Origin: a virus
Lineage: Duplodnaviria > Heunggongvirae > Uroviricota > Caudoviricetes
Virus record (IMG/VR): IMGVR_UViG_2913177423_000002
Length of the DNA stretch: 13,420 bases
Strand: one strand, 5' to 3'
The translations under genes and the position numbers were made by a program. The notes under the pieces were generated by a model. The model saw only the letters and a program-made list of their open reading frames with translations. It had not been told where the DNA came from and ran no database searches. Of this stretch, positions 1,303 through 11,792 are shown piece after piece. How positions within the stretch are numbered: the stretch's first letter is position 1; every line of letters begins with the position of its first letter.

Positions 1303-1473
1303 ATGTCAGAACGTAAAGACTCAAAATCACGCCGTAATTATCTCGTAAAATGTTCCTGCCCAAACTGTACCCAAGAATCAGAACACAGTTTTTCTAGAGT
1401 ACAAAAAGGTGCCCTTTTGATCTGCCCTCATTGCAACAAAGTATTCCAAACAAATCTTAAAGCTGTTGCCTGA
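1303..1473 (+). CDS. Small putative zinc-ribbon protein (56 aa), opposite strand to the late genes
   Basis: ATG at 1303 preceded by AGGAAAAG; translation MSERKDSKSRRNYLVKCSCPNCTQESEHSFSRVQKGALLICPHCNKVFQTNLKAVA has two CxxC pairs (CPNC, CPHC). Below the size cut-off of the ORF track. A hairpin terminator follows. Confidence 0.45.
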   Translation: MSERKDSKSRRNYLVKCSCPNCTQESEHSFSRVQKGALLICPHCNKVFQTNLKAVA

Positions 1474-1754: not shown

Positions 1755-1970
1755 TTAATCAGTAATAATGACATTTGCTGCTGCAGGACCTTTAGCACCA
1801 CTCTCTACAGAGAAGGTAACCTTTTGGCCTTCAAATAAGGTTCGATAATTATCATTCTGAATTGCAGAAAAATGCACAAACACATCTTTACTACCATCAA
1901 CAGGAGAAATAAAGCCAAAACCTTTATCAGCGTTAAACCATTTTACTAAACCAGTCATTTTATTTGACAT
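1755..1970 (-). CDS. cspB: Cold-shock protein, CspA family (CspB-like)
   Basis: 71 aa [38 protein letters not shown]...; RNP1 motif KGFGFI and RNP2-like VFVHF of the cold-shock domain. Confidence 0.93.
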
Positions 1971-2338: not shown

Positions 2339-3091
2339 TTATCTTGTCACCTTTCTCAACTGTGCTTCTGCATATGCTTCTTCCTGCCAGCACTTTGTAA
2401 CCAGTTTATCAATAACATCAGCATACCCCTTGTACCACTGATAATCCGTCAGGTCCGGTACCAGTTTCTGGACATGATGCCGCGCCAGTGTGGTTGGTAA
2501 ACGGCTAAACCGGTTTCCATTGCAACGCCCACAAATCTTATAAACAGGCGTGCCATGAAGCCGGGTCCTTTTTTCATCCAGGACAATACCTTTACCCTTA
2601 CACCCTCTGCACGCTGTGCTGACTTCTCCCTTACCATGACAATGCTGACATAGTTCCTTCACCCACTCTTCCTTGATAACGGATTCCCCGCTTCTGGAAT
2701 GTTTCACCACTTCGCGCAATACATTATGAAATCCCGTACCAGCACAATGCTCACAGCGAGCCTTACTTGCCGCAGACCTGGAATAATCAGCAAAGGCAAA
2801 ATTCACGAGGTAAGGAATAATCTGTAACCGTGTTTCTGCACTCAATTTATTCAATGTCGGGTTATCCAGTGCCATCGCGTAATTGAGCAGACCTTCAATC
2901 GCAAACTGAGGGTCCTGAACACCAACTTTTGCCAGGAATAAGGCAAACCCAAGCGGTGCTTTCGACTGCACCATCCCCTGCGCAGCCATCACATCCGTAA
3001 TTGATAAACCACCTGAGTCTGTCGCCGGTGCGTCATCGCTCAATTTTGGAGATTTTGGGGAGTAATATTTTGGTAAGGCCTCAAGATTCAT
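2339..3091 (-). CDS. quuQ: Late antiterminator Q (QuuQ/YdfT-like, 250 aa) with four CxxC motifs
   Basis: Track ORF 2339-3121 begins at TTG; the ATG at 3091 has a GGAGAG RBS and gives MNLEALPKYY... Position just upstream of the late promoter and lysis genes; CEHCAGTG, CQHCHGKG, CRGCKGKG and CGRCNG motifs. Matches my recollection of K-12 Qin QuuQ. Confidence 0.85.
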   Translation of the reverse strand: MNLEALPKYYSPKSPKLSDDAPATDSGGLSITDVMAAQGMVQSKAPLGFALFLAKVGVQDPQFAIEGLLNYAMALDNPTLNKLSAETRLQIIPYLVNFAFADYSRSAASKARCEHCAGTGFHNVLREVVKHSRSGESVIKEEWVKELCQHCHGKGEVSTACRGCKGKGIVLDEKRTRLHGTPVYKICGRCNGNRFSRLPTTLARHHVQKLVPDLTDYQWYKGYADVIDKLVTKCWQEEAYAEAQLRKVTR

Positions 3092-3307
3092 TCTCGCTCT
3101 CCATTTACACCAGCACGCCAATTGGCAGCAAAAAACAATAAAACGGCATCAACCGATCGTTATCTCTGGCTTCATACAATTGTCTCTGCCAGTGTTTTGG
3201 CGTAATTCTTCAGTATCCGGTAATCGGTCAAAACAGAACCGGGAAACGATATAAGCGCAGGCGCCCCCAGCGGTAGCGAAGGAGTTCTGCCATATATGAC
3301 TCACACA

Positions 3308-3670
3308 TCATTCATCCCCCAGTTCGGTGATGATCAGTTCCAGCTTTCCACCCTTGGTAACGGGCATTTTCACAACGCGATAATCAACGACCTGAGCATC
3401 ATCCAGCCAGAAACCTGCTTTGGTGAGTGCGTCAAAAGCTGCTTTTTGCAGATTATCCAGGTCACGGCGACGGCGATCCGGCATGTGGCACTCAATACGG
3501 ATTTTCACTGGCATAGCCAGACCGATATCCAGCATGGAGCCTTTGATGATTCGGGCGACGTTATCGCGGTATACCTGCCCCTCTGCGCTGATGTGCGTGC
3601 GCCCGCGATTATGGCGGTAGTAGCGGTTATTGCTCGGCGGCCAGGGTAGTGTGATGTAGTAAGTATTCAC
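3308..3670 (-). CDS. rusA: Holliday junction resolvase RusA
   Basis: GTG start at 3670 overlapping the upstream stop (GTGA); translation ...[36 protein letters not shown]...[21 protein letters not shown]... is the RusA family signature. The track ORF extends further upstream in frame but that part overlaps ybcO. Confidence 0.9.
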
Positions 3671-3957
3671 GCCTTGATTACCCCCTCTTTCAGCCAGATA
3701 ACCTGCGTTCTCGCCATATCTTCCAGCGCGCATTCTTTTGCATACTCAGCATCGACAAAATGTGTGCGGCGGTCGATTTCGTCGTGACAGGCAGAACATG
3801 CAATGGTGGCAATCAGGTCTGGCGGTTTGATACCGGTACCGCACAATCCAGCCAGCCGGATATGTGCCAGTACAGACGTTTCAGGATTGCCATTACATAC
3901 GCCAGGGATTCTTACCTGGCATTCCCGACCACGCGCTGCTTTTCTCAAATCAGCCAT
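3667..3957 (-). CDS. ybcO: YbcO-like Cys-rich protein (putative nuclease, DLP12 nin-region family)
   Basis: ATG at 3957 with AGGAGG RBS; [42 protein letters not shown]... 96 aa; start overlaps the ninE stop. Confidence 0.85.
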
Positions 3958-4120
3958 GATTCCTCCTTGCTGCCAGTCGCAACCATTTTTTATCAACCAG
4001 GCTGGCGGTATATCCGAGCAGTGTTGGTATTTCGGATGGTTTCAGCTCAGGCTTACGCTTACGACGATTTGGTACTCTGTAGATGTGTCCGCTCATGACA
4101 CGAATAAGCGGTGTAGCCAT
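3950..4120 (-). CDS. ninE: NinE-like small protein (56 aa)
   Basis: Not in ORF track (short). ATG at 4120 overlaps the ybcN stop (TAATG); translation [56 protein letters not shown]; its stop overlaps the ybcO start. Confidence 0.8.
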   Translation of the reverse strand: MATPLIRVMSGHIYRVPNRRKRKPELKPSEIPTLLGYTASLVDKKWLRLAARRNHG

Positions 4121-4575
4121 TACGCCTCCTGCTTGTCGCGCAGCAGCTGGAACTCGCAGCTCTGCGGAATAGTCAGGTGGCAGCCAATATTCATCGCCCA
4201 GGCTTCAACCTTACACAGGAAGACATACATCTCTCCGGTATCAAGATCGGAGGTATGGCGTAACGACTGGATCGTAGTGATTTCGCCGGTTACGACATCA
4301 ACCAGGTCCTTGGTTTCATAACCGAGGTATGTGTGTTTGAGTGCATCTTTTACCCATACTGCAGTAGCGAACGTTTTACCCCTGCTGATGAGGTACTCAC
4401 TGATTTCGCTGTACCACATGTGGCTGAGTGCATTCTGGGAAAGACTGCGTCTCTCGCGCCACGGTTTAAGCACCATGCGAAAGCATTTGCCATCCTCCAG
4501 ATAAGGCTGGATCTGCTGACCGATAGCGGTGAAGTTGCCGCGATGTAATTTGATGCCGTCTTGTGGGAGGTTCAC
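4120..4575 (-). CDS. ybcN: YbcN-like protein (DLP12 nin-region family)
   Basis: 151 aa ORF, GTG start at 4575 with GGAGGTGA RBS; first gene of the coupled ybcN-ninE-ybcO-rusA block. Confidence 0.85.
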
Positions 4576-5086
4576 GCTTCACCTCCGCAGAGGTCAAACG
4601 TTGGATGCAAAAAATCGCAGGTGCATTTCTGCATCTGTGAAGGGAGAAGAGAGTTTAGATTGTGTGTGCGCATAAACGTCCCCGTTTAGCGCAGAAGTCA
4701 CCGGAGGTGTTCAGGCTCCGATGACATGATTATGGCGAGTTGATTATGGAAAATCAATTGAAGATGAAATTCAACAATGCCCCATGGTGCTATGGCGCTC
4801 AATTAATTATATAACTTCAGAGAAAACTGATAACCCATTGATGATGACATTAGCTCAGACTAAGAAGACTGACAACGGGGACGAACATGAACAGCAACGC
4901 CTGACATAGGTAAATCTCAAAAGCGAATCATATAATCCTTACCCCATCACTCAGAGACATCGCATAATAACATTCATACCACTATATAACCTCCAAATAA
5001 CAACAACAATTCATTGGTTGCATTAATATCAGCGTGTTCCGTTGTTCAGGAATAAAACTTTTTATTTAACAAACAAAGAGAGTTCA

Positions 5087-5764
5087 ATGATGAGCAAAAT
5101 TACAGGCGTGTTAGTTGATAGCCATATCTATGATATTAAAAATGATATGGAGAGTGGTTACTGTTTCCCTAACAGTTTGTTCCCAGGAGCAACCTTCAAG
5201 ATGGTCATTGATAATGACCCTATTAATAATGACAAGGTAAAATGGACCTGTAGCACTAATGCAGACAATAATGTTCTGGCGGTTAGCCAGGATGGCACAG
5301 TAACTTTTCCGGGCGTAGATGAAAAGTGCGTTGGGAAGATTTTTGTCATTTTCGCCACTGATAAATCAACAAACAAATCTGCCGGCATCTATGTTTTTAT
5401 TGTGAAGCGTTTTTTCAAATACAGCATTGAACTTTATAACTCAGTTAAAGATATTTTACCGTGGATTGAAAACATGAACGGGAATTTTCCTGAGGCACGT
5501 GACATCTATAGTTACGATTATGATAACTATAGTGGACCGCATATTATCAATCGAGAAGTTAACGCAGGGCTTTACCAGGAATGGGGCACGTTATCTAATA
5601 GTGGATGGGACGCAAGTTGTGAGCTTGAGGGTATTTGTAGCATTTACGCTTTTGATAAAGACAATAATACTTATTATTGCCTGCGTGATTATGGAGAAAT
5701 AGAGTGTATTGATCGTTTTTGCGTCGCTCAGGCAGTTGCATCCTACGGAGAATCCATCGACTGA
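5087..5764 (+). CDS. Orphan hypothetical protein (about 226 aa) in an AT-rich island; possible Ig-like N-terminal region plus Cys-containing C-terminal domain
   Basis: Track ORF 5042-5764 starts at TTG; ATGATG at 5087 with AAAGAGAG RBS is the likely start. Opposite strand to all neighbours, AT-rich codon usage, own terminator downstream. Segment KVKWTCSTNADNNVLAVSQDGTVTFPGV...GKIFVIFAT resembles bacterial Ig-like (Big_2-type) domains (weak, from pattern only). Confidence 0.6.
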   Translation: MMSKITGVLVDSHIYDIKNDMESGYCFPNSLFPGATFKMVIDNDPINNDKVKWTCSTNADNNVLAVSQDGTVTFPGVDEKCVGKIFVIFATDKSTNKSAGIYVFIVKRFFKYSIELYNSVKDILPWIENMNGNFPEARDIYSYDYDNYSGPHIINREVNAGLYQEWGTLSNSGWDASCELEGICSIYAFDKDNNTYYCLRDYGEIECIDRFCVAQAVASYGESID

Positions 5765-5840
5765 TTGTGTTTTTTTCAACTATCATTTGCATTATTACAG
5801 CGTAAAGATTCACTGAAATTATAAAATTTAACTTGCGCAA

Positions 5841-5872
5841 AACCACCCGTTCAGCGGGTGGTTCTCATTTTT
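5841..5872 (+). terminator. Rho-independent terminator of the island gene
   Basis: Perfect 9 bp stem aaccacccg/cgggtggtt (5841-5863) with 5 nt loop, followed by a T-run 5868-5872. Confidence 0.7.
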
Positions 5873-6044
5873 ATCCACTATGTATATGAAGCTTAAAAAA
5901 AATAAACGGACTTAAGCGCTCCTTTTTATATTGCTACAAACAATTAATTCTCGACACCTAATAACTAAAGCCCCGCCCCCATATACCGCCAATACCCGTT
6001 TCATAACAAAATGCTGGTGACATTTCTCACCGGAAACTTTATTG

Positions 6045-6650
6045 CTACTGCTCAGAACGCAAATGCGGCAATACTCGGCTCCACTTATCATCCTGCCACG
6101 GCTGGAATCTTACATGTGCCGTTTCTCTGGCAAGGATTTCGCGCGCCTTATGTAGTATCTGGGGATATTCTTGCTCAATAGAAGTAAAGCGACCGGCTTC
6201 GCGATGCTCCGCAACCTGAAGAAGTGGAGTAACATTCTGGCAGGCGGTTAACATCACATCCCCTGCTCGCCATAACCAGGCGAGTGTGCAAAGTTCGTTA
6301 TCAGTGAATTGTTTTGTGATTGGGGATTGTTGAACTTCTCGATCGAGAATATCCAGAACCCAGCGGCGGAATTCTTTGGCTACAGGAGTGCGGGCGAACA
6401 TAGCGATCAAATGGGCACCACGGAGGGAGAAAATGCGTATTGTTTTCTGGTAGTTCCCTGAGACACTCAAATTGAGGGTCTCAGTCATATCTGCCCTAAA
6501 TTCATCGGAATTTCGATCGTAGATCTGAGTTACGGCATCAGATTTTTTATATCCGAGAGCTTGAGCAATCTCAACGGCAGTAAGCCAGATACTGTTGTTG
6601 TGTTTAACAGGATGGAATTTTGTTTGATGAAAGACTAGTTGTGTGCTCAT
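6045..6650 (-). CDS. Bro-N/KilA-N-like domain protein (antirepressor/Roi-like)
   Basis: 201 aa; N-terminal region LVFHQTKFHPVKHNNSIWLTAVEIAQALGYKKSDAV resembles the Bro-N DNA-binding domain pattern. Family assignment from pattern memory only. Confidence 0.6.
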   Translation of the reverse strand: MSTQLVFHQTKFHPVKHNNSIWLTAVEIAQALGYKKSDAVTQIYDRNSDEFRADMTETLNLSVSGNYQKTIRIFSLRGAHLIAMFARTPVAKEFRRWVLDILDREVQQSPITKQFTDNELCTLAWLWRAGDVMLTACQNVTPLLQVAEHREAGRFTSIEQEYPQILHKAREILARETAHVRFQPWQDDKWSRVLPHLRSEQ

Positions 6651-6807
6651 GATGATTACCTATAAATCAAGTTAACCACCACCGCTGACGCCAATCAGTT
6701 TGGTGGTGAGACATGTAGGGTTGGCGTAACCGGGGTAATCAACCGGCCCGACCGAAGTCGGCCCTACACGCCCCACCATAATTCAGATGTGCGTATGCTT
6801 ACGACAA

Positions 6808-6830
6808 TAAAAAACACGCTCGCGGCGTGT
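6808..6830 (-). terminator. Rho-independent terminator downstream of the ninB-like gene
   Basis: Stem acacgc/gcgtgt (6814-6830) with 5 nt loop; on the minus strand it is followed by TTTTTT (plus-strand A-run 6808-6813). Confidence 0.5.
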
Positions 6831-6925
6831 AGTAGTCGCGATTACCTTATCCGGGACGCCAATCCCGTGTGCCGATTTTGCGGCAACGCACAGAATATAG
6901 CGCCAGATATTAGTTATCGTCAACC

Positions 6926-7414
6926 TCACTGATTTCCTCCCCCCGCCGCATAAACAAATAAAACCCGCTTCATCGCGGCACTCTGGCGACACTCCTTGAA
7001 AATCAGATTCGTGCTCACCTTTCCTTCCCGTTCTTCCCTGGTAGCGAACCGGTAATACACCGTTCGCCAGACCTTACCATCAATGACTAAGATTCCTGCC
7101 CGCGCCATTTTAGCCGCAGCCTGATTTATGCTGGTTACTGTTGCGCCTGTTACCTCAGCAACGTCCTGCTGCTTTAATGCTGCTGTAAAAACGCACTTCC
7201 AGCTTTCTGCATCCAGCCAGCGACCATGCCATTCAACCTGACGAGAGACGTCACCAAGGCAAGCCCAAAGCTTTCGATTCTGGTCTAAGCTGCGGTTGCG
7301 TTCCTGAATGGTTACTACGATTGGTTTGGTTGGGTCTGGAAGGATTTGCTGTACTGCGTGAATAGCGTTTTGCTGATGTGCTGGAGATCGAATTTCAAAG
7401 GTTAGCTTTTTCAT
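6926..7414 (-). CDS. ninB: NinB (Orf) family recombination protein, N-terminal half conserved, C-terminal half divergent
   Basis: ATG at 7414 with GGGGGAGAGGGA RBS; MKKLTFEIRSPAHQQNAIHAVQQILPDPTKPIVVTIQERNRSLDQNRKLWACLGDVSRQVEWHGRWLDAESWKCVFTAALKQQDV matches lambda NinB as I recall it, then the sequence diverges. The track start at 7432 is a TTG inside the RBS. Confidence 0.7.
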   Translation of the reverse strand: MKKLTFEIRSPAHQQNAIHAVQQILPDPTKPIVVTIQERNRSLDQNRKLWACLGDVSRQVEWHGRWLDAESWKCVFTAALKQQDVAEVTGATVTSINQAAAKMARAGILVIDGKVWRTVYYRFATREEREGKVSTNLIFKECRQSAAMKRVLFVYAAGGGNQ

Positions 7415-7431
7415 GACTTCCCTCTCCCCCA

Positions 7432-7462
7432 AATAAAAAGGCCTGCGATTACCAGCAGACCT
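7432..7462 (-). terminator. Possible tR2-like terminator between helicase and ninB
   Basis: Imperfect hairpin aggcctgc/gcagacct (one mismatch) followed on the minus strand by TTTTTATTT. Confidence 0.35.
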
Positions 7463-7487
7463 GTTATTAGCTCAGTGATGTAGATGG

Positions 7488-8864
7488 TCATACGTCAGCC
7501 CCTTGTGCATATCGTCTGCCACGCGCAGCAGGTGCATTTGATGCTGTGCAAATCTGTCTGGCTTCATCCTGGTCACATGCAACAAAGTGTCCGTTACAGA
7601 ACCGCTGGTAAACCGTACCAAGTGAGCCAAAACGGTTTTTCGTCACGATGATTTCAGCAAATGGCGCGGCGCTACTGTTCTCGTCATATACCGCTTCCCG
7701 ATAGAGCATGATGATTGAGTCTGCGTCCTGCTCAATGCTTCCTGAATCACGCAAATCTGCGTTTGTCGGGCGTTTGTTTGGTCGCTTCTCAACATCGCGT
7801 GAAAGCTGACTTAGGGAGATAACAGGCGTTTTCAGGTCTTTCGCCATCGCCTTAAGGCTTCCTGAGATGTGAGCAATTGCGAGGTCGTTGCGGTCTGCTT
7901 TCGGCTTCTCAATCAGGCCAAGATAATCCGCCATGATGAGTGACAGGTTTGGATTTTCCTGTTTGTGTCGTTCTGCGATTGAGCGAATTTCTTCGACAGA
8001 TAACCGCGAGGCATCGACTACCCATACATCCAAATCTGCAAGCTGACTCATGCCGTTAGCAACGCGCGCCCAGCCTTCGTCATCCATCGATGCAGGATTT
8101 CGCAGCACGCTAACCGACATCCTCCCGGCGTTGGCAATGCTTCGCTCTGCAATCTGCAATGCGCTCATTTCCATCGAGAAAATCAATACTCCGCGCCGGA
8201 CGTCAGAACCAGGAATAACGCGGCTTGCAACGCCTTCGGCAATCTTCAGCGCCAGTTCGGTTTTCCCCATACCAGGACGAGCGGCGATAATCACCAGGTC
8301 TTCCGCGTTCATCCCTCCGGTGATGGCGTCAAGTTCTTCGATTCCGGTCTTCAGGGTATCTGACTCTTCTCCGTTCCTCAGACGCCTGTCAAGCGTGTCA
8401 GTGTAGTCAGTGATGATTTCCCCTAACCGTACAGGTTTAACCTCGTCACGGGGCTTTCTGATGGCTGAGAGCCGTTTTACAAGTTCATCCATCGCCTGAC
8501 TCGATGCGTCGATGGTTCCGCTTTGGATTGGTTCACGCATTTCATCCATGATTTCCAGCACCAGACGGCGGTGATAGTTATCCGCGACCATTCCGGCATA
8601 TCCCTTCAGGTTTGCGGCACTCGGGCAGTTTTTGCTGGTCATCAGGATTGACGTGAAATGCTCCTCTCCGCACGCCTCGGCAACCATCAGCGCGTCGATT
8701 AGGTTTCTGTTTCTCGCCTGCTTGCGGATAACCTCGAAGGCTTTCCGGTAGAGCGGAATTGAAAACGCTTCCGGCTCCAGCGTTGCCAGAACGTCGCTGG
8801 CGGTTGGTGTTAATCCACCAATCAGCAGGCCACCGATAACGCTCGCTTCGATATCCTGTTTCAT
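7488..8864 (-). CDS. Replicative DNA helicase, DnaB family (P22 gene 12-like)
   Basis: 458 aa with Walker A ARPGMGKT and DnaB-like C-terminal motifs; start overlaps the stop of the upstream initiator gene. Confidence 0.92.
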
Positions 8865-9682
8865 GCAATCCCCCTGTCTGCAAACTTCCCTTCCCGTACT
8901 CCCGTTAACGAGTCTTCCCTCAGCAGGTAATCAAAATCGGCCGTCCAGCCCGTGTCGTTGTCTCCGAAGTAAAACGGCTTGGCCTGATGCACAAACGCCC
9001 TGACATACGCTCTGAAACCGTCCACGTTTGGCGTTTTCAGTTGCGGGATGATTTTCTTCAGGCGACGTTTGCGTTTCTCGTTGACCGCAACAGCGTGTGG
9101 CAGTCTGTCACCGACTTCGGTGTTGTAGGCGTTCAGGAAGGATTCGTAGTCGATTCGTTCTGCCTTGCGACGTTCAGGTTTAACCTGCCCATCGCCGCCC
9201 CCGTTAGGGGGTAAGGGGGTATTTGTATTTATTGTCTTTTGTATATTGTCTTTTGTGTTTAGCTGACTTGGCTTATACCCATTAGCCGACTTGGCTAATG
9301 TTTTATTAGCTGTTTTAGCTAATGTTAAGCTGTCCTGGCTAATCCACTGAGAAACCACCTTGTTCACTCCGATTTTCACGCCATCAGCAATGAGGAATTT
9401 ACGCTCAATAAGCTGGCGCTTGGCAGCGCAAACATGAGTGTGATGAATACCTGTCATGGCTGCTATCTGCGTGTTTGTGAGTCGATCCATCGGCTTATTG
9501 AATCCGTATGTCTTGCGCATGATAGCGAGCATCACCTTCAACTGCCGGACGGTTAAATCAGCCATCAGCAGACTGTCGGTAATCTCGTTAGCAACGCGCA
9601 TGAAACCATCTTCGGTATCTGCCACGCGATGCTCCACGACCTCCAGTTGAGGCCTGTAATCAGCTAACTTAACGACGCCCAT
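8861..9682 (-). CDS. Replication initiator, lambda O / P22 gene 18 family
   Basis: 273 aa; N-terminal [38 protein letters not shown] matches the lambda O motif ADLTKRQFKVLLAILRKTYGWNKPMD (recalled). Iterons lie inside the gene; AGGAG RBS. Confidence 0.85.
9220..9345. repeat. Origin of replication: four iterons plus adjacent AT-rich segment, inside the initiator gene
   Basis: Direct repeats of an approximately 18 bp unit at 9260-9277, 9283-9300, 9307-9324 and 9328-9345 (AGCTGACTTGGCTTAT, AGCCGACTTGGCTAAT, AGCTGTTTTAGCTAAT, AGCTGTCCTGGCTAAT), start-to-start spacing 23, 24 and 20-21 bp; adjacent AT-rich tract with TATTGTCTTTTGT repeated (9220-9260). Confidence 0.7.
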
Positions 9683-9830
9683 GTTTCACTCCTGCTTTGG
9701 CTAGTCTGTAAACACCAACAAGGCGCTCTGCGAACGCCCTGTTATTTGCTGCGGCTACCACTAATCCCTCAGGTGAATCAGGGTGTCGAATCTCTTCTTT
9801 TTCCTGGTATTTCTTACGACGTTTTGTCAT
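9669..9830 (-). CDS. Small basic hypothetical protein (53 aa) between cII and the initiator gene
   Basis: ATG at 9830 with AGGAG RBS; [53 protein letters not shown]; overlaps the initiator start by 14 nt. No family recognised. Confidence 0.35.
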   Translation of the reverse strand: MTKRRKKYQEKEEIRHPDSPEGLVVAAANNRAFAERLVGVYRLAKAGVKHGRR

Positions 9831-9839
9831 AATTACTCC

Positions 9840-9908
9840 TGTGGATTGAGCCAGTCTTTCTACATCAGGCCTCAAAACTGTTGCAGCAGTCTTGAGGCTT
9901 TTCTTTTG
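9840..9908 (+). ncRNA. oop-like antisense RNA candidate (antisense to the 3' end of cII)
   Basis: Strong plus-strand terminator: stem 9869-9880 / 9887-9898 with one mismatch, loop TTGCAG, then TTTTCTTTT (9899-9907). Possible -10 CATAAT at 9828-9833. Geometry matches lambda oop. The start point is inferred, not seen. Confidence 0.45.
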
Positions 9909-10143
9909 TCAGCACCATGGCTACTTTCTTTGCCAGCTCTGCTAATTCCTCGTCTTCAACACCCCACTCCAGCACAGCCAGAAGCATGGCCATCTTTGGG
10001 ATAAAGCTGTCTTTCCATCGCGAAATTTGCGATTCATTAATCCCTAATGCATCAGCAACCTTTCGCTGACCACGTACAGCAATTCGATTTAGGATATTGC
10101 TTGTGATTGCATTCGCTTTCTTGCGAGTACTTGTAAGTTGCAT
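9865..10143 (-). CDS. cII: CII-like transcriptional activator (P22 C1 analogue)
   Basis: ATG at 10143 with AAGGAAA RBS (track ORF extends in frame upstream to 10230). ...GINESQISRWKDSFIPKMAMLLAVLEWGVEDEE matches the lambda CII helix-turn-helix and tetramerisation region VDKSQISRWKRDWIPKFSMLLAVLEWGV (recalled). Confidence 0.88.
   Translation of the reverse strand: MQLTSTRKKANAITSNILNRIAVRGQRKVADALGINESQISRWKDSFIPKMAMLLAVLEWGVEDEELAELAKKVAMVLTKEKPQDCCNSFEA
10097..10110 (+). promoter_or_regulatory. TTGC-N6-TTGC motif: candidate CII-binding site of a PRE-like establishment promoter
   Basis: Exact TTGCttgtgaTTGC on the plus strand inside the 5' part of cII, oriented toward cro and the repressor gene, as in lambda PRE. 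Confidence 0.5.
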
Positions 10144-10202
10144 ATGTAAGTATTTCCTTAACAAATAAGAAGTTATACGCACCAACTGATGCGCGTTGTA
10201 TT

Positions 10203-10244
10203 CCCGCATTTCGGCGGGAATGAGGACCATGACTGTTAAAGAGC
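10203..10244 (-). promoter_or_regulatory. nutR-like site (boxA GCTCTTTAA plus boxB hairpin)
   Basis: Minus strand reads TGCTCTTTAACA, a 14 nt spacer, then TCCCGCCGAAATGCGGGAA (5 bp stem, purine-rich loop). An identical boxA and boxB pair occurs downstream of PL. Located between cro and cII. Confidence 0.7.
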
Positions 10245-10251
10245 AATTTGC

Positions 10252-10437
10252 TTATGCCGCTTTGCGGTAAGCGCTTTCTTGATACTTCAGGGCGCCAGCT
10301 GTAACGACTTCCAGTCGATAGGCGTCTTTCTCTGGGATGACTTCCTTCCACTGAGAGACTGCTGCATCGCTAATGCCTAACGCTTTAGCTACCGCACGCT
10401 GGGTTCCGAAGTGGTCGATAACATCTTTCTTGTACAT
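10252..10437 (-). CDS. cro: Cro repressor (P22 Cro-like)
   Basis: 61 aa MYKKDVIDHFGTQRAVAKALGISDAAVSQWK... with helix-turn-helix; divergent from the repressor gene across the operator region; GGAG RBS. Confidence 0.9.
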   Translation of the reverse strand: MYKKDVIDHFGTQRAVAKALGISDAAVSQWKEVIPEKDAYRLEVVTAGALKYQESAYRKAA

Positions 10438-10451
10438 AGACTCGCTCCGAA

Positions 10452-10517
10452 ATTAAAGAACACTTAAATTATCTATCAAAGGAATCTTAAGTCAAGTTTA
10501 TTTAAGATGTCTTAACT
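10452..10517. promoter_or_regulatory. OR operator triplet with divergent PR and PRM
   Basis: Three 18 bp sites fitting ANTNAAGNNNNCTTNANT: 10452-10469 ATTAAAGAACACTTAAAT, 10475-10492 ATCAAAGGAATCTTAAGT, 10500-10517 ATTTAAGATGTCTTAACT. PR on minus: -35 TTGACT (10495-10490), 16 bp spacer, -10 GATAAT (10473-10468). The repressor ATG abuts the last operator, so the PRM transcript is near-leaderless. Confidence 0.75.
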
Positions 10518-11168
10518 ATGAATACACAACTGATGGGTGAGCGTATTCGCGCTCGCAGAAAAGAACTCAAGATTAGGCAGGCTGCCCTTGGCAAGATGGT
10601 TGGCGTGTCTAATGTTGCTATTTCCCAATGGGAGCGTTCTGAAACTGAGCCCAATGGCGAAAACCTATTGGCCTTAGCCAAGGCTTTGCAGTGCTCCCCT
10701 GATTACTTGTTGAAAGGAGAAGATAGTCTTTCAAACATTGCCTATCACAGCAGGCATGATCCAAGAGGTTCGTATCCTCTAATTAGTTGGGTAAGCGCAG
10801 GATGTTGGATGGAAGCTGTAGAGCCATATCATAAGCGTGCAATAGATAACTGGTACGATACAACCGTAGATTGTTCAGAAGATTCGTTTTGGCTGGACGT
10901 AAAGGGTGATTCGATGACGGCTCCAGCCGGTCTTAGCATCCCGGAAGGGATGATAATACTAGTCGATCCTGAAGTAGAACCTCGTAATGGGAAGCTGGTA
11001 GTGGCAAAGCTCGAAGGAGAAAACGAGGCAACTTTCAAGAAGTTAGTTATTGATGCTGGCAGAAGGTTTCTAAAACCACTTAACCCACAATATCCGATGA
11101 TTGAGATCAACGGGAACTGCAAAATCATCGGTGTAGTTGTCGATGCAAAAATAGCAAACCTTCCATAA
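10518..11168 (+). CDS. c2: Prophage repressor, P22 C2 type (HTH plus S24 LexA-like autocleavage domain)
   Basis: 216 aa; N-terminal helix-turn-helix (QAALGKMVGVSNVAISQWERSE), Ala-Gly cleavage site and GDSM serine motif with downstream lysine. Near-identical to P22 C2 as I recall it. Confidence 0.95.
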   Translation: MNTQLMGERIRARRKELKIRQAALGKMVGVSNVAISQWERSETEPNGENLLALAKALQCSPDYLLKGEDSLSNIAYHSRHDPRGSYPLISWVSAGCWMEAVEPYHKRAIDNWYDTTVDCSEDSFWLDVKGDSMTAPAGLSIPEGMIILVDPEVEPRNGKLVVAKLEGENEATFKKLVIDAGRRFLKPLNPQYPMIEINGNCKIIGVVVDAKIANLP

Positions 11169-11190
11169 GGGGCATTCGCCCCTTTTTTCT
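11167..11190 (+). terminator. Rho-independent terminator after the repressor gene
   Basis: Stem ggggc/gcccc (11169-11182), loop ATTC, then TTTTTT (11183-11188). Confidence 0.7.
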
Positions 11191-11231
11191 TTCCTTTAAA
11201 AATCAAAGCAAAACTTAAACTTCGCAATAAA

Positions 11232-11285
11232 ATTTAAGTTTTCTTCAAAAATACCCTTGACCACCAATTAAAGAAATCTTAAATT
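11232..11285 (+). promoter_or_regulatory. OL operators and PL promoter
   Basis: Operator-consensus sites at 11232-11249 (ATTTAAGTTTTCTTCAAA) and 11267-11284 (ATTAAAGAAATCTTAAAT); -35 TTGACC (11257-11262), 17 bp spacer, -10 TAAATT (11280-11285) overlapping the second operator. Confidence 0.6.
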
Positions 11286-11331
11286 TAAGTCATCAGCAGG
11301 ACGCTGGTAGCCAAACGGAACAGATTGGCAG

Positions 11332-11371
11332 GCTCTTTAACATTGATGGGATTGTCCCGCCGAAATGCGGG
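11332..11371 (+). promoter_or_regulatory. nutL-like site (boxA GCTCTTTAA plus boxB hairpin)
   Basis: GGCTCTTTAACA (boxA 11332-11340), spacer, CCCGCCGAAATGCGGG (boxB 11356-11371); boxA and boxB are identical to the nutR copy. Confidence 0.7.
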
Positions 11372-11394
11372 AACCAAAGAGTAGTTGGCTTTGG

Positions 11395-11460
11395 GGTGAC
11401 GTAAAGTGCAGCCGCGCAACAGCATCAGGGAGTTAACCTCCCTCCCCCAGTTACGTCACC
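11395..11460 (+). promoter_or_regulatory. Structured N-leader element (long-range inverted repeat enclosing a hairpin); possible RNase III-type processing or translational control site
   Basis: GGTGACGTAA (11395-11404) pairs with TTACGTCACC (11451-11460); inner hairpin GGGAG-TTAAC-CTCCC (11428-11442); ends 16 nt before the N-like RBS GGAGG. Confidence 0.4.
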
Positions 11461-11486
11461 GCTAAAGTCAATCATCGGAGGTCAAC

Positions 11487-11792
11487 ATGACAGTAGTCAT
11501 TACATATCTGGCTGACGATAACGCCAGAAATCGCCGCAGAGCACGCAGACAGGCTCAACGTGAACAGGCAATGAAAGAACAGAGACTGGCGCGAAAGATT
11601 GCGCTAAAACTCTCTGGTTGCGTCAGAGCAGACAAAGCAGCATCACTTGGCAGCCTTCTCTGCAAGAAAGTAGATGAAGTCGAGAAAAAAAATAGGAGGG
11701 TTTACTACAAGGATTTAAACCCATTAGGAAACAAGATACATGCAGTTCAAAGAATAAGATTGTATAGTAAACCACCGTACGGTGCTTATTGA
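11487..11792 (+). CDS. N: N-like transcription antiterminator with arginine-rich motif
   Basis: 101 aa; N-terminal ARM NARNRRRARRQAQREQ resembles lambda N QTRRRERRAEKQAQ; first gene after PL and nutL; GGAGG RBS. Confidence 0.75.
   Translation: MTVVITYLADDNARNRRRARRQAQREQAMKEQRLARKIALKLSGCVRADKAASLGSLLCKKVDEVEKKNRRVYYKDLNPLGNKIHAVQRIRLYSKPPYGAY

Follow-up and report, generated by a model that had tools for sequence, protein, structure and literature searches.

A moron cassette in the nin region of a lambdoid prophage encodes a stand-alone invasin/intimin-type adhesion module that lacks an export signal

The morons of lambdoid phages, such as bor and lom of lambda and emrE, ybcL and ybcM of DLP12, are AT-rich single genes or small sets of genes that lie between conserved phage genes and encode exported or membrane proteins. 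Receptor binding by inverse autotransporters is performed by distal adhesion modules, which are the integrin-binding D4-D5 superdomain in Yersinia invasin (PDB 1CWV) and the Tir-binding D2-D3 module in intimin of EPEC and EHEC (PDB 1F00/1F02). To our knowledge, all characterized proteins with the invasin/intimin tip fold act outside the cell. The 13,420-nucleotide stretch of viral DNA analyzed here (the window) contains a cassette that resembles the lambdoid morons in its setting and base composition and in being followed by a dedicated terminator; a dedicated promoter is presumed. Unlike the known lambdoid morons, it encodes a protein without an export signal that belongs to a different, uncharacterized family, which is related to the adhesin tips.

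The first-pass annotation had described positions 4576-6044 as an AT-rich island containing a single plus-strand gene and about 460 bp of non-coding leader. The base composition was borne out, with a GC content of 0.389 for 4576-6044 and 0.377 for 4758-6000, compared with 0.519 and 0.490 in the flanks (3308-4575 and 6045-7432, respectively). The borders were misplaced, however. Homology to other phages ends on the left at 4757 and homology to other prophages restarts on the right at ∼6000, which places the variable insert at ∼4758-6000 (GC 0.38 versus 0.49-0.52 in the flanks), with a sharper mobile cassette of ∼1 kb and a single plus-strand gene inside it (∼4944-5945). The left 182 nt (4576-4757) are part of a conserved ylcH/orf33 module outside the island, present at 90-98% identity in 2,852 of 5,426 complete E. 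coli genomes; no match in these genomes or in 50,697 phage records extended past this left edge. The supposed 460-bp leader is therefore this module plus a 186-nt spacer (4758-4943) plus ∼143 nt (4944-5086), of which only the last moves with the gene. The features of the region are as follows.

4120-4575, minus strand: ybcN-like gene, 151 aa; left flank, outside the island (NCBIfam PRK09741, 276 bits; PHROG 72, NinB/Orf-like).
4572-4673, minus strand: orf33/ylcH-like gene, 33 codons; part of the conserved ylcH-ybcN module, within the claimed leader.
4680-4757, minus strand: putative promoter and regulator-binding region of orf33-ybcN; mosaic junction that borders the insert on the left.
4758-4943, no strand: spacer of 186 nt, found in prophage copies only, with a minus-strand promoter-like site (4833→4806).
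4944-5086, plus strand: conserved 5′ region of the cassette, including the RBS and a putative promoter of its own.
5087-5764, plus strand: coding sequence, 225 aa, or 224 aa if counted from the conserved ATG (5090); Ig-like domain at ∼aa 1-112 and C-type-lectin-like domain at ∼aa 113-225.
5841-5873, plus strand: intrinsic terminator of the cargo gene, a hairpin with a T-rich tail.
5874-5945, no strand: 3′ tail of the cassette, common to copies at other loci.
6000-6044, minus strand: DNA 3′ of the antirepressor gene, containing a hairpin (6014-6033); E. coli prophage homology restarts here.
6045-6650, minus strand: Bro-N/P22AR_C antirepressor-like gene, 201 aa; right flank (Pfam Bro-N, 1.9e-13; P22_AR_C, 1.7e-15).

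Homologues of the 4120-4575 gene in E. coli prophages carry the ybcN annotation, and the counterpart of 4572-4673 is annotated as orf33 in the phage 82 record X92588 and as ylcH in K-12 DLP12. Positions 4680-4757, which include a promoter-like TTGATT-17-CATAAT at 4757→4729, correspond to features of X92588 labeled -35, -10 and “possible regulator-binding site”. The spacer is common to L001, L015 and L017 and partly to L016, is missing from the chromosomal copies L005, L012 and L024, and holds the promoter-like site TTATCA-16-TATAAT (10/12 matches). The left homology edge of the cassette is sharp, at CCAC(T/C)ACTCAGAG, in copies from four different loci, and homology at the 3′ end stops at 5945 for L005 and L006 and at ∼5895 for L024. 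A search for terminal repeats of the window cassette gave only short, chance-level repeats, and an Rfam scan of 4400-6300 gave only a chance-level match (E 0.46).

The only long plus-strand open reading frame in the segment, listed as 5042-5764, contains ATG codons at 5087 and 5090, of which that at 5090 alone is kept in all relatives. The RBS (AAAGAGAG, 5075-5082) is likewise conserved, in agreement with the earlier description of a plus-strand gene with its own RBS. The proposed hairpin terminator was also confirmed; it comprises a 10-bp stem with 6 GC pairs and a 3-nt loop (5841-5863) followed by the tail CTCATTTTTA to 5873, has a fold energy of -16.5 kcal/mol (z = -3.18), and is kept in L015, L005 and L012. 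A sigma-70 scan of the plus strand from 4758 to 5086 revealed no match of at least 9/12. The cargo gene runs against the PR/nin operon, antisense to lytic transcription from PR, and is therefore presumably transcribed independently in the lysogen.

All neighbors lie on the minus strand, as first reported, and are lambdoid nin-region genes: the ybcN-like gene, YbcO, RusA and Q on the left, and the Bro-N/P22AR_C antirepressor gene and NinB on the right. Comparison with related prophages, which had been proposed as a check, revealed the same flanks (ylcH-ybcN and the P22AR antirepressor) in L009, L010 and L011 enclosing different cargo, namely a HEPN protein with a hypothetical protein, a 169-aa hypothetical protein, or small hypothetical proteins. 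The equivalent stretch of K-12 DLP12, upstream of ylcH-ybcN, is occupied by emrE, ybcK, ybcL and ybcM, and in cryptic clades the cargo gene survives beside emrE. Since the segment is not conserved at this position across related prophages, the moron interpretation, for which such conservation had been named beforehand as a refuting observation, survives. The variable slot, the factor-independent terminator, the distinct base composition and the recurrence of the cassette at unrelated sites support the assignment of 4758-6000 as a moron in a cargo slot just upstream of ylcH-ybcN in a nin region of the DLP12/phage-82 type.

The family is tiny and confined to Escherichia, mostly the cryptic clades; among 1.84 billion representative proteins it amounts to just a few clusters at 50% identity. 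It was not found by tblastn in 50,697 phage and 72,556 plasmid records, and the cargo gene was not found in 5,426 complete E. coli genomes. Intact alleles number more than 20 (218-233 aa, 43-98% identity), all of them beginning at the same point, the domain boundary. The gene, its upstream region and the terminator recur as a discrete, mobile cassette at the following locations.

Nin slot: the window, L001-3, L015, L017 and L033-40.
Decayed DLP12 site, ybcH-[gene]-emrE: copies in E. ruysiae, E. whittamii and a cryptic clade that retain the antirepressor 3′ end.
yedF-fliE locus.
Genomic island: one copy, with toxin-antitoxin genes, an omptin and adhesins as neighbors.
Small Rop plasmids.
Near xis/int.

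Up to three paralogs occur per prophage, with two or three divergent alleles in one prophage. One subfamily, a divergent paralog, is flanked by perfect 34-bp inverted repeats, which are not present in the window, and occurs in both orientations. An IS6-type origin of this repeat was suspected for the overlapped ORF remnants and was dropped for want of Pfam support. The idea of a silent cassette that exchanges an adhesin C terminus by inversion was rejected, as the Ig-repeat neighbor in L030 is divergent from the gene rather than tail-to-tail and the neighbors are unrelated to each other. Vertical retention of orthologs in a prophage remnant was observed across species (L005, L012, L023 and L025); as a counterpoint to a defense role, such retention would sooner be expected of a domesticated host function than of defense genes, which turn over quickly.

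No family had initially been recognized for the protein, a view overturned by profile and structure comparisons, the latter having been suggested at the outset. On this basis, the product is a stand-alone distal adhesion module of the inverse autotransporter type, in which an Ig domain packs on a C-type-lectin-like domain, equivalent to invasin D4-D5 and intimin D2-D3. A family profile matched invasin with an E value of 8e-7, and the motifs FPxxxFxGAxF and R..N..L..EWG are common to both. The Pfam Invasin_D4 match was sub-threshold for the window protein, was later borne out by the profile and structure, and reached 35 bits in a paralog. The window protein begins exactly at the D4 boundary, and a Pfam scan of its 225 residues revealed Invasin_D4 only, with no IAT_beta barrel and no Big_1/Invasin_D3 stalk. 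Identity is ∼20% to invasin D4-D5, where homology is detectable, and ∼10% to intimin D2-D3. In contrast to invasin, the window protein has no signal peptide, LysM, beta-barrel translocator or D1-D3 stalk, both D5 disulfide cysteines are replaced, and, if the protein is cytoplasmic as predicted, integrin binding is not expected. In contrast to intimin, the disulfide is lost, there is no surface anchor or LEE linkage, and the carrier genomes have no known Tir-like partner. A literature search found no description of such a protein.

Several observations bear on the location of the protein. No signal peptide was found in any family member, and in-frame stop codons lie 1-33 codons upstream of the gene in 11 loci. 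The maximal 12-residue Kyte-Doolittle mean of the signal-less members is 0.7-1.5, with no hydrophobic N-terminal stretch, compared with 2.0-2.7 in four full-length adhesin relatives and 1.4-2.4 in three signal-bearing stand-alone relatives, one of which (P0042, 1.38) overlaps the signal-less range. The two cysteines of the lectin-domain disulfide, which links the helix to the C-terminal strand, are both replaced in 8/8 signal-less proteins and present in 11/11 relatives that are either secreted proteins or C-terminal modules or fragments of adhesins. Cysteine counts across the alleles range from 2 to 8, are often odd and are not conserved. A search for further signal-less relatives of P0036 returned P0036 alone. 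With the export signal and the disulfide both missing, the product is probably a variable binding protein inside the cell, and a cytoplasmic location is the likelier one on this sequence evidence. Absence of a Sec signal is compatible with non-classical release.

An extracellular role is nonetheless the alternative that survives best, albeit as an unlikely one. According to this explanation, the product is a soluble adhesin or lectin that is released upon lysis or quasi-lysis by the carrying element, through a phage holin-endolysin or a colicin-type lysis protein, and binds a ligand on a host-cell or bacterial surface as a colonization or virulence factor. The only characterized proteins of the fold are extracellular receptor binders (invasin with integrin, intimin with Tir), inducible prophages are among the carriers, as is a small plasmid resembling a bacteriocin plasmid, and the neighbors of the island copy include an omptin, an inverse autotransporter of 2,639 aa and a classical autotransporter. 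The high cysteine number of some alleles (up to 8) would also suit an extracellular protein, and immune or receptor pressure could account for hypervariability. However, the signal peptide is absent from every allele, the canonical cysteines retained in every secreted or adhesin-module relative compared are lost, and the remaining cysteines are odd in number and not conserved. Release upon lysis also fits poorly with a gene antisense to the lytic PR transcript and with purifying selection at chromosomal sites that have no lysis genes nearby.

A partnership with the adjoining Bro-N/P22AR antirepressor-like gene, the pair modulating induction or inter-phage repression, is less probable again. 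The two genes are convergent neighbors in every nin-slot copy, and the antirepressor gene is duplicated along with the cassette in some prophages, with L038 and L040 containing tandem duplicates of window ∼4605-6925 as one ∼2.3-kb unit. Chromosomal copies also derive from the gene-antirepressor arrangement, L012 and L023 retaining a piece of the antirepressor 3′ flank up to window 6086. Against a partnership, the gene stands alone and intact in L005 and L012 after deletion of the antirepressor gene, with a dN/dS of 0.22, and no antirepressor gene lies beside the copies on plasmids, in the island or near int.

There is very little to recommend a role on the virion, either in decoration or as an accessory receptor-binding protein. 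Phage particles often display Ig-like domains, and the viral structural matches were BIG2/Ig decoration and tail proteins, but these matches, from the BFVD viral structures, covered the Ig half alone with a TM-score of ∼0.25. Moreover, the gene maps to the early region, is opposite in strand to the lytic transcripts and is kept in prophage remnants, plasmids and islands without structural genes.

Overall dN/dS values of 0.2-0.5 indicate purifying selection, which acts on both the Ig domain and the lectin core. The notion of a non-functional relic, a 3′ fragment of a decayed invasin/intimin-type adhesin gene hitch-hiking on mobile DNA, is favored by the exact correspondence of the ORF to the C-terminal module of long adhesins and the existence of truncated copies (P0017, P0022, P0023, L028 and L029), but is largely refuted by the selection data (dN/dS 0.22-0.48, 0.09-0.29 in the N domain, with dS up to ∼1.7). 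The common start of the intact alleles and the conserved RBS and terminator also speak against it.

Three patches of the lectin domain (∼aa 145-155, 175-185 and 198-213) are hypervariable among alleles. In most comparisons of copies on different elements the patch dN/dS was 1.0-2.1 (lowest, 0.51), values biased upward because the patches were chosen afterwards from the same alignment; orthologous chromosomal copies gave 0.27. One variable patch is common to P0011 and P0014 on different backbones, which points to segment shuffling. A lectin-type fold, carriage by phage and variability in the C-terminal part of the domain are also seen in the variable proteins of diversity-generating retroelements (DGRs), such as Mtd of Bordetella phage. 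Unlike in those systems, variation in the present family lies between alleles and paralogs and is not made in situ. No reverse transcriptase was found among the scanned neighboring ORFs, all of which are ordinary lambdoid early or nin genes, and the absence of a template repeat (direct repeats in 4700-6150 do not exceed 27 nt) led to the rejection of a DGR.

The preferred interpretation, to which we give a probability of roughly 40% as a whole, is that of a moron cassette carrying an intracellular variable binder for conflict with phages or toxins. The anatomy, fold, mobility and selection pattern described above are established, and the cytoplasmic location is probable. An adhesin tip module would have been re-tooled for the cytoplasm, with the signal peptide, beta-barrel and canonical disulfide gone. 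The product would then be a stoichiometric binding protein, the variable patches of the lectin domain setting ligand specificity. Its ligand would be a variable intracellular target, such as an imported toxin or some protein of a phage entering the cell, and binding would confer exclusion or immunity on the lysogen without an enzymatic domain. No model in PHROGs, PADLOC-DB v2 (no family at E ≤ 1) or NCBIfam matches the protein, and the argument for a defense role is consequently one of context and evolutionary pattern; taken separately, a role in conflict or immunity is speculative and must be regarded as doubtful. More tentative still is the suggestion that the fold has been recruited for antibody-like recognition inside the cell, the patches of each allele neutralizing a different invader protein, whether phage component or imported toxin. 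The same suggestion, equally tentative, would make the ∼1-kb cassette a new class of single-gene, non-enzymatic prophage immunity of which prophages stack two or three specificities.

Orphan immunity genes of colicin, CDI and T6SS systems and the prophage exclusion genes sieB and ren offer a parallel to such an intracellular binder. They also encode small non-enzymatic proteins, for which the cytoplasmic site predicted here has a counterpart, and are scattered as divergent single genes, in multiple copies per genome, on prophages, plasmids and islands. By analogy, variation is highest in the patches that would contact a target. Unlike those genes, the window gene has no adjoining cognate toxin gene, and its product has no sequence or fold relation to the known proteins. 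The resemblance may indicate a possible way of working, not membership.

Whereas morons of the nin region are commonplace, this cargo is unusual in belonging to an uncharacterized, Escherichia-only family. It shows that the tip with which invasin and intimin bind their receptors can also occur as a protein on its own, with neither export signal nor disulfide. The fixed copy beside emrE in E. ruysiae, E. whittamii and the cryptic clades represents a phage cargo gene that has outlived its prophage and is tractable for knockout. Should the protein be cytoplasmic and work through binding, the adhesin fold would gain a new use, and the cassette would be a small immunity or exclusion module of allele-specific action, absent from current defense catalogues.

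The AT-rich island in the nin region sits in a stretch of lambdoid prophage that covers the early-right, nin and lysis genes, with the PR operon on the minus strand. The window as a whole is mosaic, its parts being known from E. coli phages and prophages. The gene order is as follows.

10518-11168, plus strand: cI
8861-9682: O
7488-8864: DnaB-type helicase, between O and NinB
6926-7432, minus strand: NinB, right of the antirepressor
6045-6650: Bro-N/P22AR_C antirepressor, right flank of the island
4572-4673, minus strand: orf33/ylcH (33 codons), part of the conserved module on the left
4120-4575: ybcN-like gene, left of the island, followed by YbcO and RusA
2339-3121: Q, after RusA, with the lysis genes beyond

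An IMG/VR prophage contig (L035) is 99.9% identical to window 3420-11761, and the cryptic-clade isolate Escherichia sp. E1V33 is 99.3% identical to window 4401-6700. The 168-aa ORF at 6926-7432 aligns with NinB at aa 9-112 and with phrog_142, a Ren-like exclusion family, at aa 88-163, and may represent either two overlapping genes or a fused one; a near-identical locus (L001) has a 162-aa NinB called at this spot. A second AT-rich stretch (1050-2250, GC 0.33-0.39), between Q and holin, contains ORFs of 56 aa (1303-1473, plus strand) and 71 aa (1755-1970, minus strand), where L001 names YnfU-like and cold-shock (CSD) ORFs, and looks like another cargo region.

The island has a GC content of 0.38-0.39 versus 0.49-0.52 in the flanking genes and holds one long plus-strand ORF, the cargo gene, as the first-pass annotation had it. 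The ribosome-binding site and perfect hairpin terminator that it ascribed to this gene were also borne out: the RBS AAAGAGAG is at 5075-5082, with ATGs at 5087 and 5090 (only 5090 being kept across relatives), and the terminator at 5841-5873, kept in four relatives, forms a perfect 10-bp stem (-16.5 kcal/mol, z = -3.2). The proposed borders, 4576-6044, had to be redrawn. The left 182 nt (4576-4757) are a conserved module, present in 2,852 of 5,426 complete E. coli genomes and containing a putative promoter and regulator site as annotated in phage 82, and on the right the match to other prophages restarts at ~6000, within the antirepressor's 3' flank; the insert is therefore ~4758-6000. Within it, the part also present at unrelated loci has a sharp left edge at ~4944 and runs to ~5895-5945, and only ~143 nt of upstream sequence, rather than the ~460-bp leader first described, moves with the gene. 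It is a self-contained, mobile, single-gene cassette.

Composition, terminator and orientation fit the original reading of the island as a moron (independently transcribed cargo), and prophages with the same flanks fill the slot with different cargo: a HEPN protein with a hypothetical protein, a 169-aa hypothetical protein, or small hypothetical proteins. The renD-ylcH stretch of K-12 DLP12 holds emrE, ybcK, ybcL and ybcM. Megablast and sensitive blastn of the insert without its flanks gave no match in the 5,426 complete E. coli genomes, and tblastn of the cargo protein gave none among 50,697 phage and 72,556 plasmid records. The block upstream of the gene is conserved, and a scan of the upstream sequence returned no plus-strand sigma-70-like site at threshold. 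The cargo gene fits a moron in all but its promoter, the one weak point.

No family had been recognized for the protein initially, but profile and structure searches match it to invasin D4-D5 and intimin D2-D3. Pfam gave a sub-threshold match to Invasin_D4, which scored above the curated cut-off in a 44%-identical paralog, and a profile from 22 family members matched Yersinia invasin (1CWV residues 304-394, E = 8e-7). The AlphaFold2 model from the 22-member alignment was confident (pLDDT 86.5, pTM 0.85) and retrieved 1cwv (E 7e-12) and 1f00 (E 1.7e-6) in Foldseek. Because these results agree, the cargo protein is a free-standing 225-aa Ig + C-type-lectin-like adhesion superdomain, starting exactly at the D4 boundary, with invasin D4-D5 and intimin D2-D3 as its counterparts. 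It has a binding-module fold without a catalytic domain, is homologous to the invasin/intimin tip and, like that tip, probably works as a binding module. Unlike the inverse-autotransporter family, however, it has no signal peptide, barrel, stalk or disulfide, and it is therefore not to be filed as an adhesin. It matched none of the catalogued defence families, and literature searches returned no description of it.

A hydrophobic N terminus was absent in 22/22 family members, and in-frame stops 1-33 codons upstream of the gene in 11 loci leave no room for a hidden signal peptide. Cysteines were aligned across the family, C-terminal modules of long inverse autotransporters and stand-alone relatives with signal peptides, the relatives having come from an exhaustive profile search. 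The canonical lectin-domain disulfide, from the “WC” of the first helix to the “V-x-C” of the last strand, is kept in all 11 relatives that are either secreted proteins or C-terminal modules or fragments of adhesins, whereas both cysteines are replaced in all eight signal-less proteins, including the very distant singletons P0036 and P0039. Cysteine counts within the family range from 2 to 8 and are often odd. This correlation of signal with cysteines, the best evidence although short of proof, suggests that the cargo protein folds in a reducing compartment and remains there. P0036 (221 aa, L030 4985-5650), a singleton among 5.8 billion clusters, is again encoded a few kb from an emrE-type gene and adjoins the gene for a 651-aa secreted Ig-repeat protein.

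The family is very small: among 1.84 billion 50%-identity representatives, P0015 and P0025 were the only full-length members, other close matches being fragments and the remainder adhesin C termini. The 5.8 billion 90%-identity clusters yielded 24 members, every organism-named one Escherichia, and among 185,579 species-representative genomes only Escherichia sp. E1V33 (four copies), E. ruysiae (one) and E. whittamii (three) carried the gene. Judged by its substitutions, the ORF is a real gene: dN/dS is 0.22-0.48 over the whole length and falls to 0.09-0.29 in the Ig domain, with dS up to ~1.7. On a conserved scaffold, the lectin domain has three variable patches (~aa 145-155, 175-185 and 198-213; column entropy 2-3.5 bits), followed by an invariant C terminus, AQAVA-x-YG. 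Patch dN/dS was 1.0-2.1 in most between-element copy comparisons (lowest 0.51), values above 1 being indicative only because the patches were picked afterwards from the same data, and was 0.27 between orthologous chromosomal copies. The proteins P0011 and P0014 have one variable patch in common but differ in the rest of their backbones, probably through shuffling of segments. This pattern of selection suggests a functional gene whose product has a variable surface.

The gene occupies the nin slot beside the antirepressor in several different prophages, one labelled E. coli. In E. ruysiae, E. whittamii and another cryptic clade it lies in the order ybcH-[gene]-emrE-folD (L005, gene at 8001-8678; L006, L012, L023 and L025), which against the K-12 map is a DLP12-type prophage stripped to two cargo genes. 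Nothing is left there of the sfm operon, fimZ, argU or the remaining prophage, so the two cargo genes outlived the phage; the antirepressor 3' end is retained, up to window 6086, and these copies therefore derive from the prophage arrangement. Between L005 and L012, dS is 0.29 and dN/dS 0.22, and this vertical retention argues for a host benefit from the cargo gene. Further copies are found at the chromosomal yedF-fliE site and in an integrase-bounded island that also carries three toxin-antitoxin pairs, an omptin and two autotransporters, one classical and one inverse (2,639 aa). At yedF-fliE in Escherichia sp. E2748 (L016), the gene (8305-8982, minus strand) is convergent with a 225-aa ORF without a Pfam match; the E. 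whittamii site (L024) lacks this ORF and two glycine-zipper/DUF5384 genes. A 52% allele is carried by Rop/ColE1-type plasmids of ~6.5 kb (L018-L021, e.g. L020 4393-6570, minus strand) in Escherichia sp. E2562 and relatives. Its neighbours are a 725-731-aa protein with a GH19-like (muramidase/chitinase) motif near the C terminus, a DUF4087 protein and two small ORFs, and this plasmid gene group may be an undescribed bacteriocin-immunity set.

Prophages of the same type have, near xis/int and outside the window, a 42-44% paralog enclosed by a pair of perfect 34-bp inverted repeats, TGCTGACTTTCCACCGTTAACGCGACACAACCTT (L027 1272-1305 and 2259-2292). The repeat also occurs in loci L031 and L041-L047, with one copy in L029, and overlaps the ends of short ORF remnants (“...LLTFHR*”). 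Because both orientations occur between identical flanks (L043 vs L027), the paralog is in a segment that either inverts or moves as a cassette bounded by the inverted repeats. In some IMG/VR prophages the window ~4605-6925 unit (part of orf33, cassette and antirepressor) is duplicated in tandem, as in L038 (343-1017 and 2802-3476) and L040 (3538-4215 and 6001-6633), with two different nin-slot alleles per prophage (99% and 84%, or 98% and 82%). On the prophage contig comprising L040 and L044, the int-side paralog brings the number of copies to three, the maximum per prophage. Several divergent alleles occur per genome and per prophage.

The cargo protein would remain in the cytoplasm and bind its ligand stoichiometrically; the variable patches would set which ligand is bound, and the ligand itself would vary. 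A conflict function, whether against other phages (exclusion) or against an imported toxin (immunity), is the most economical reading, and we give it a tentative probability of about 30%. Its strongest rival, a soluble adhesin or lectin released by lysis, has the adhesion fold in its favor and the replaced disulfide cysteines against it, and is the less likely of the two. A non-functional relic is essentially excluded by the dN/dS values. An ordinary genomic device, the moron, here bears an unusual derivative of a well-known fold.
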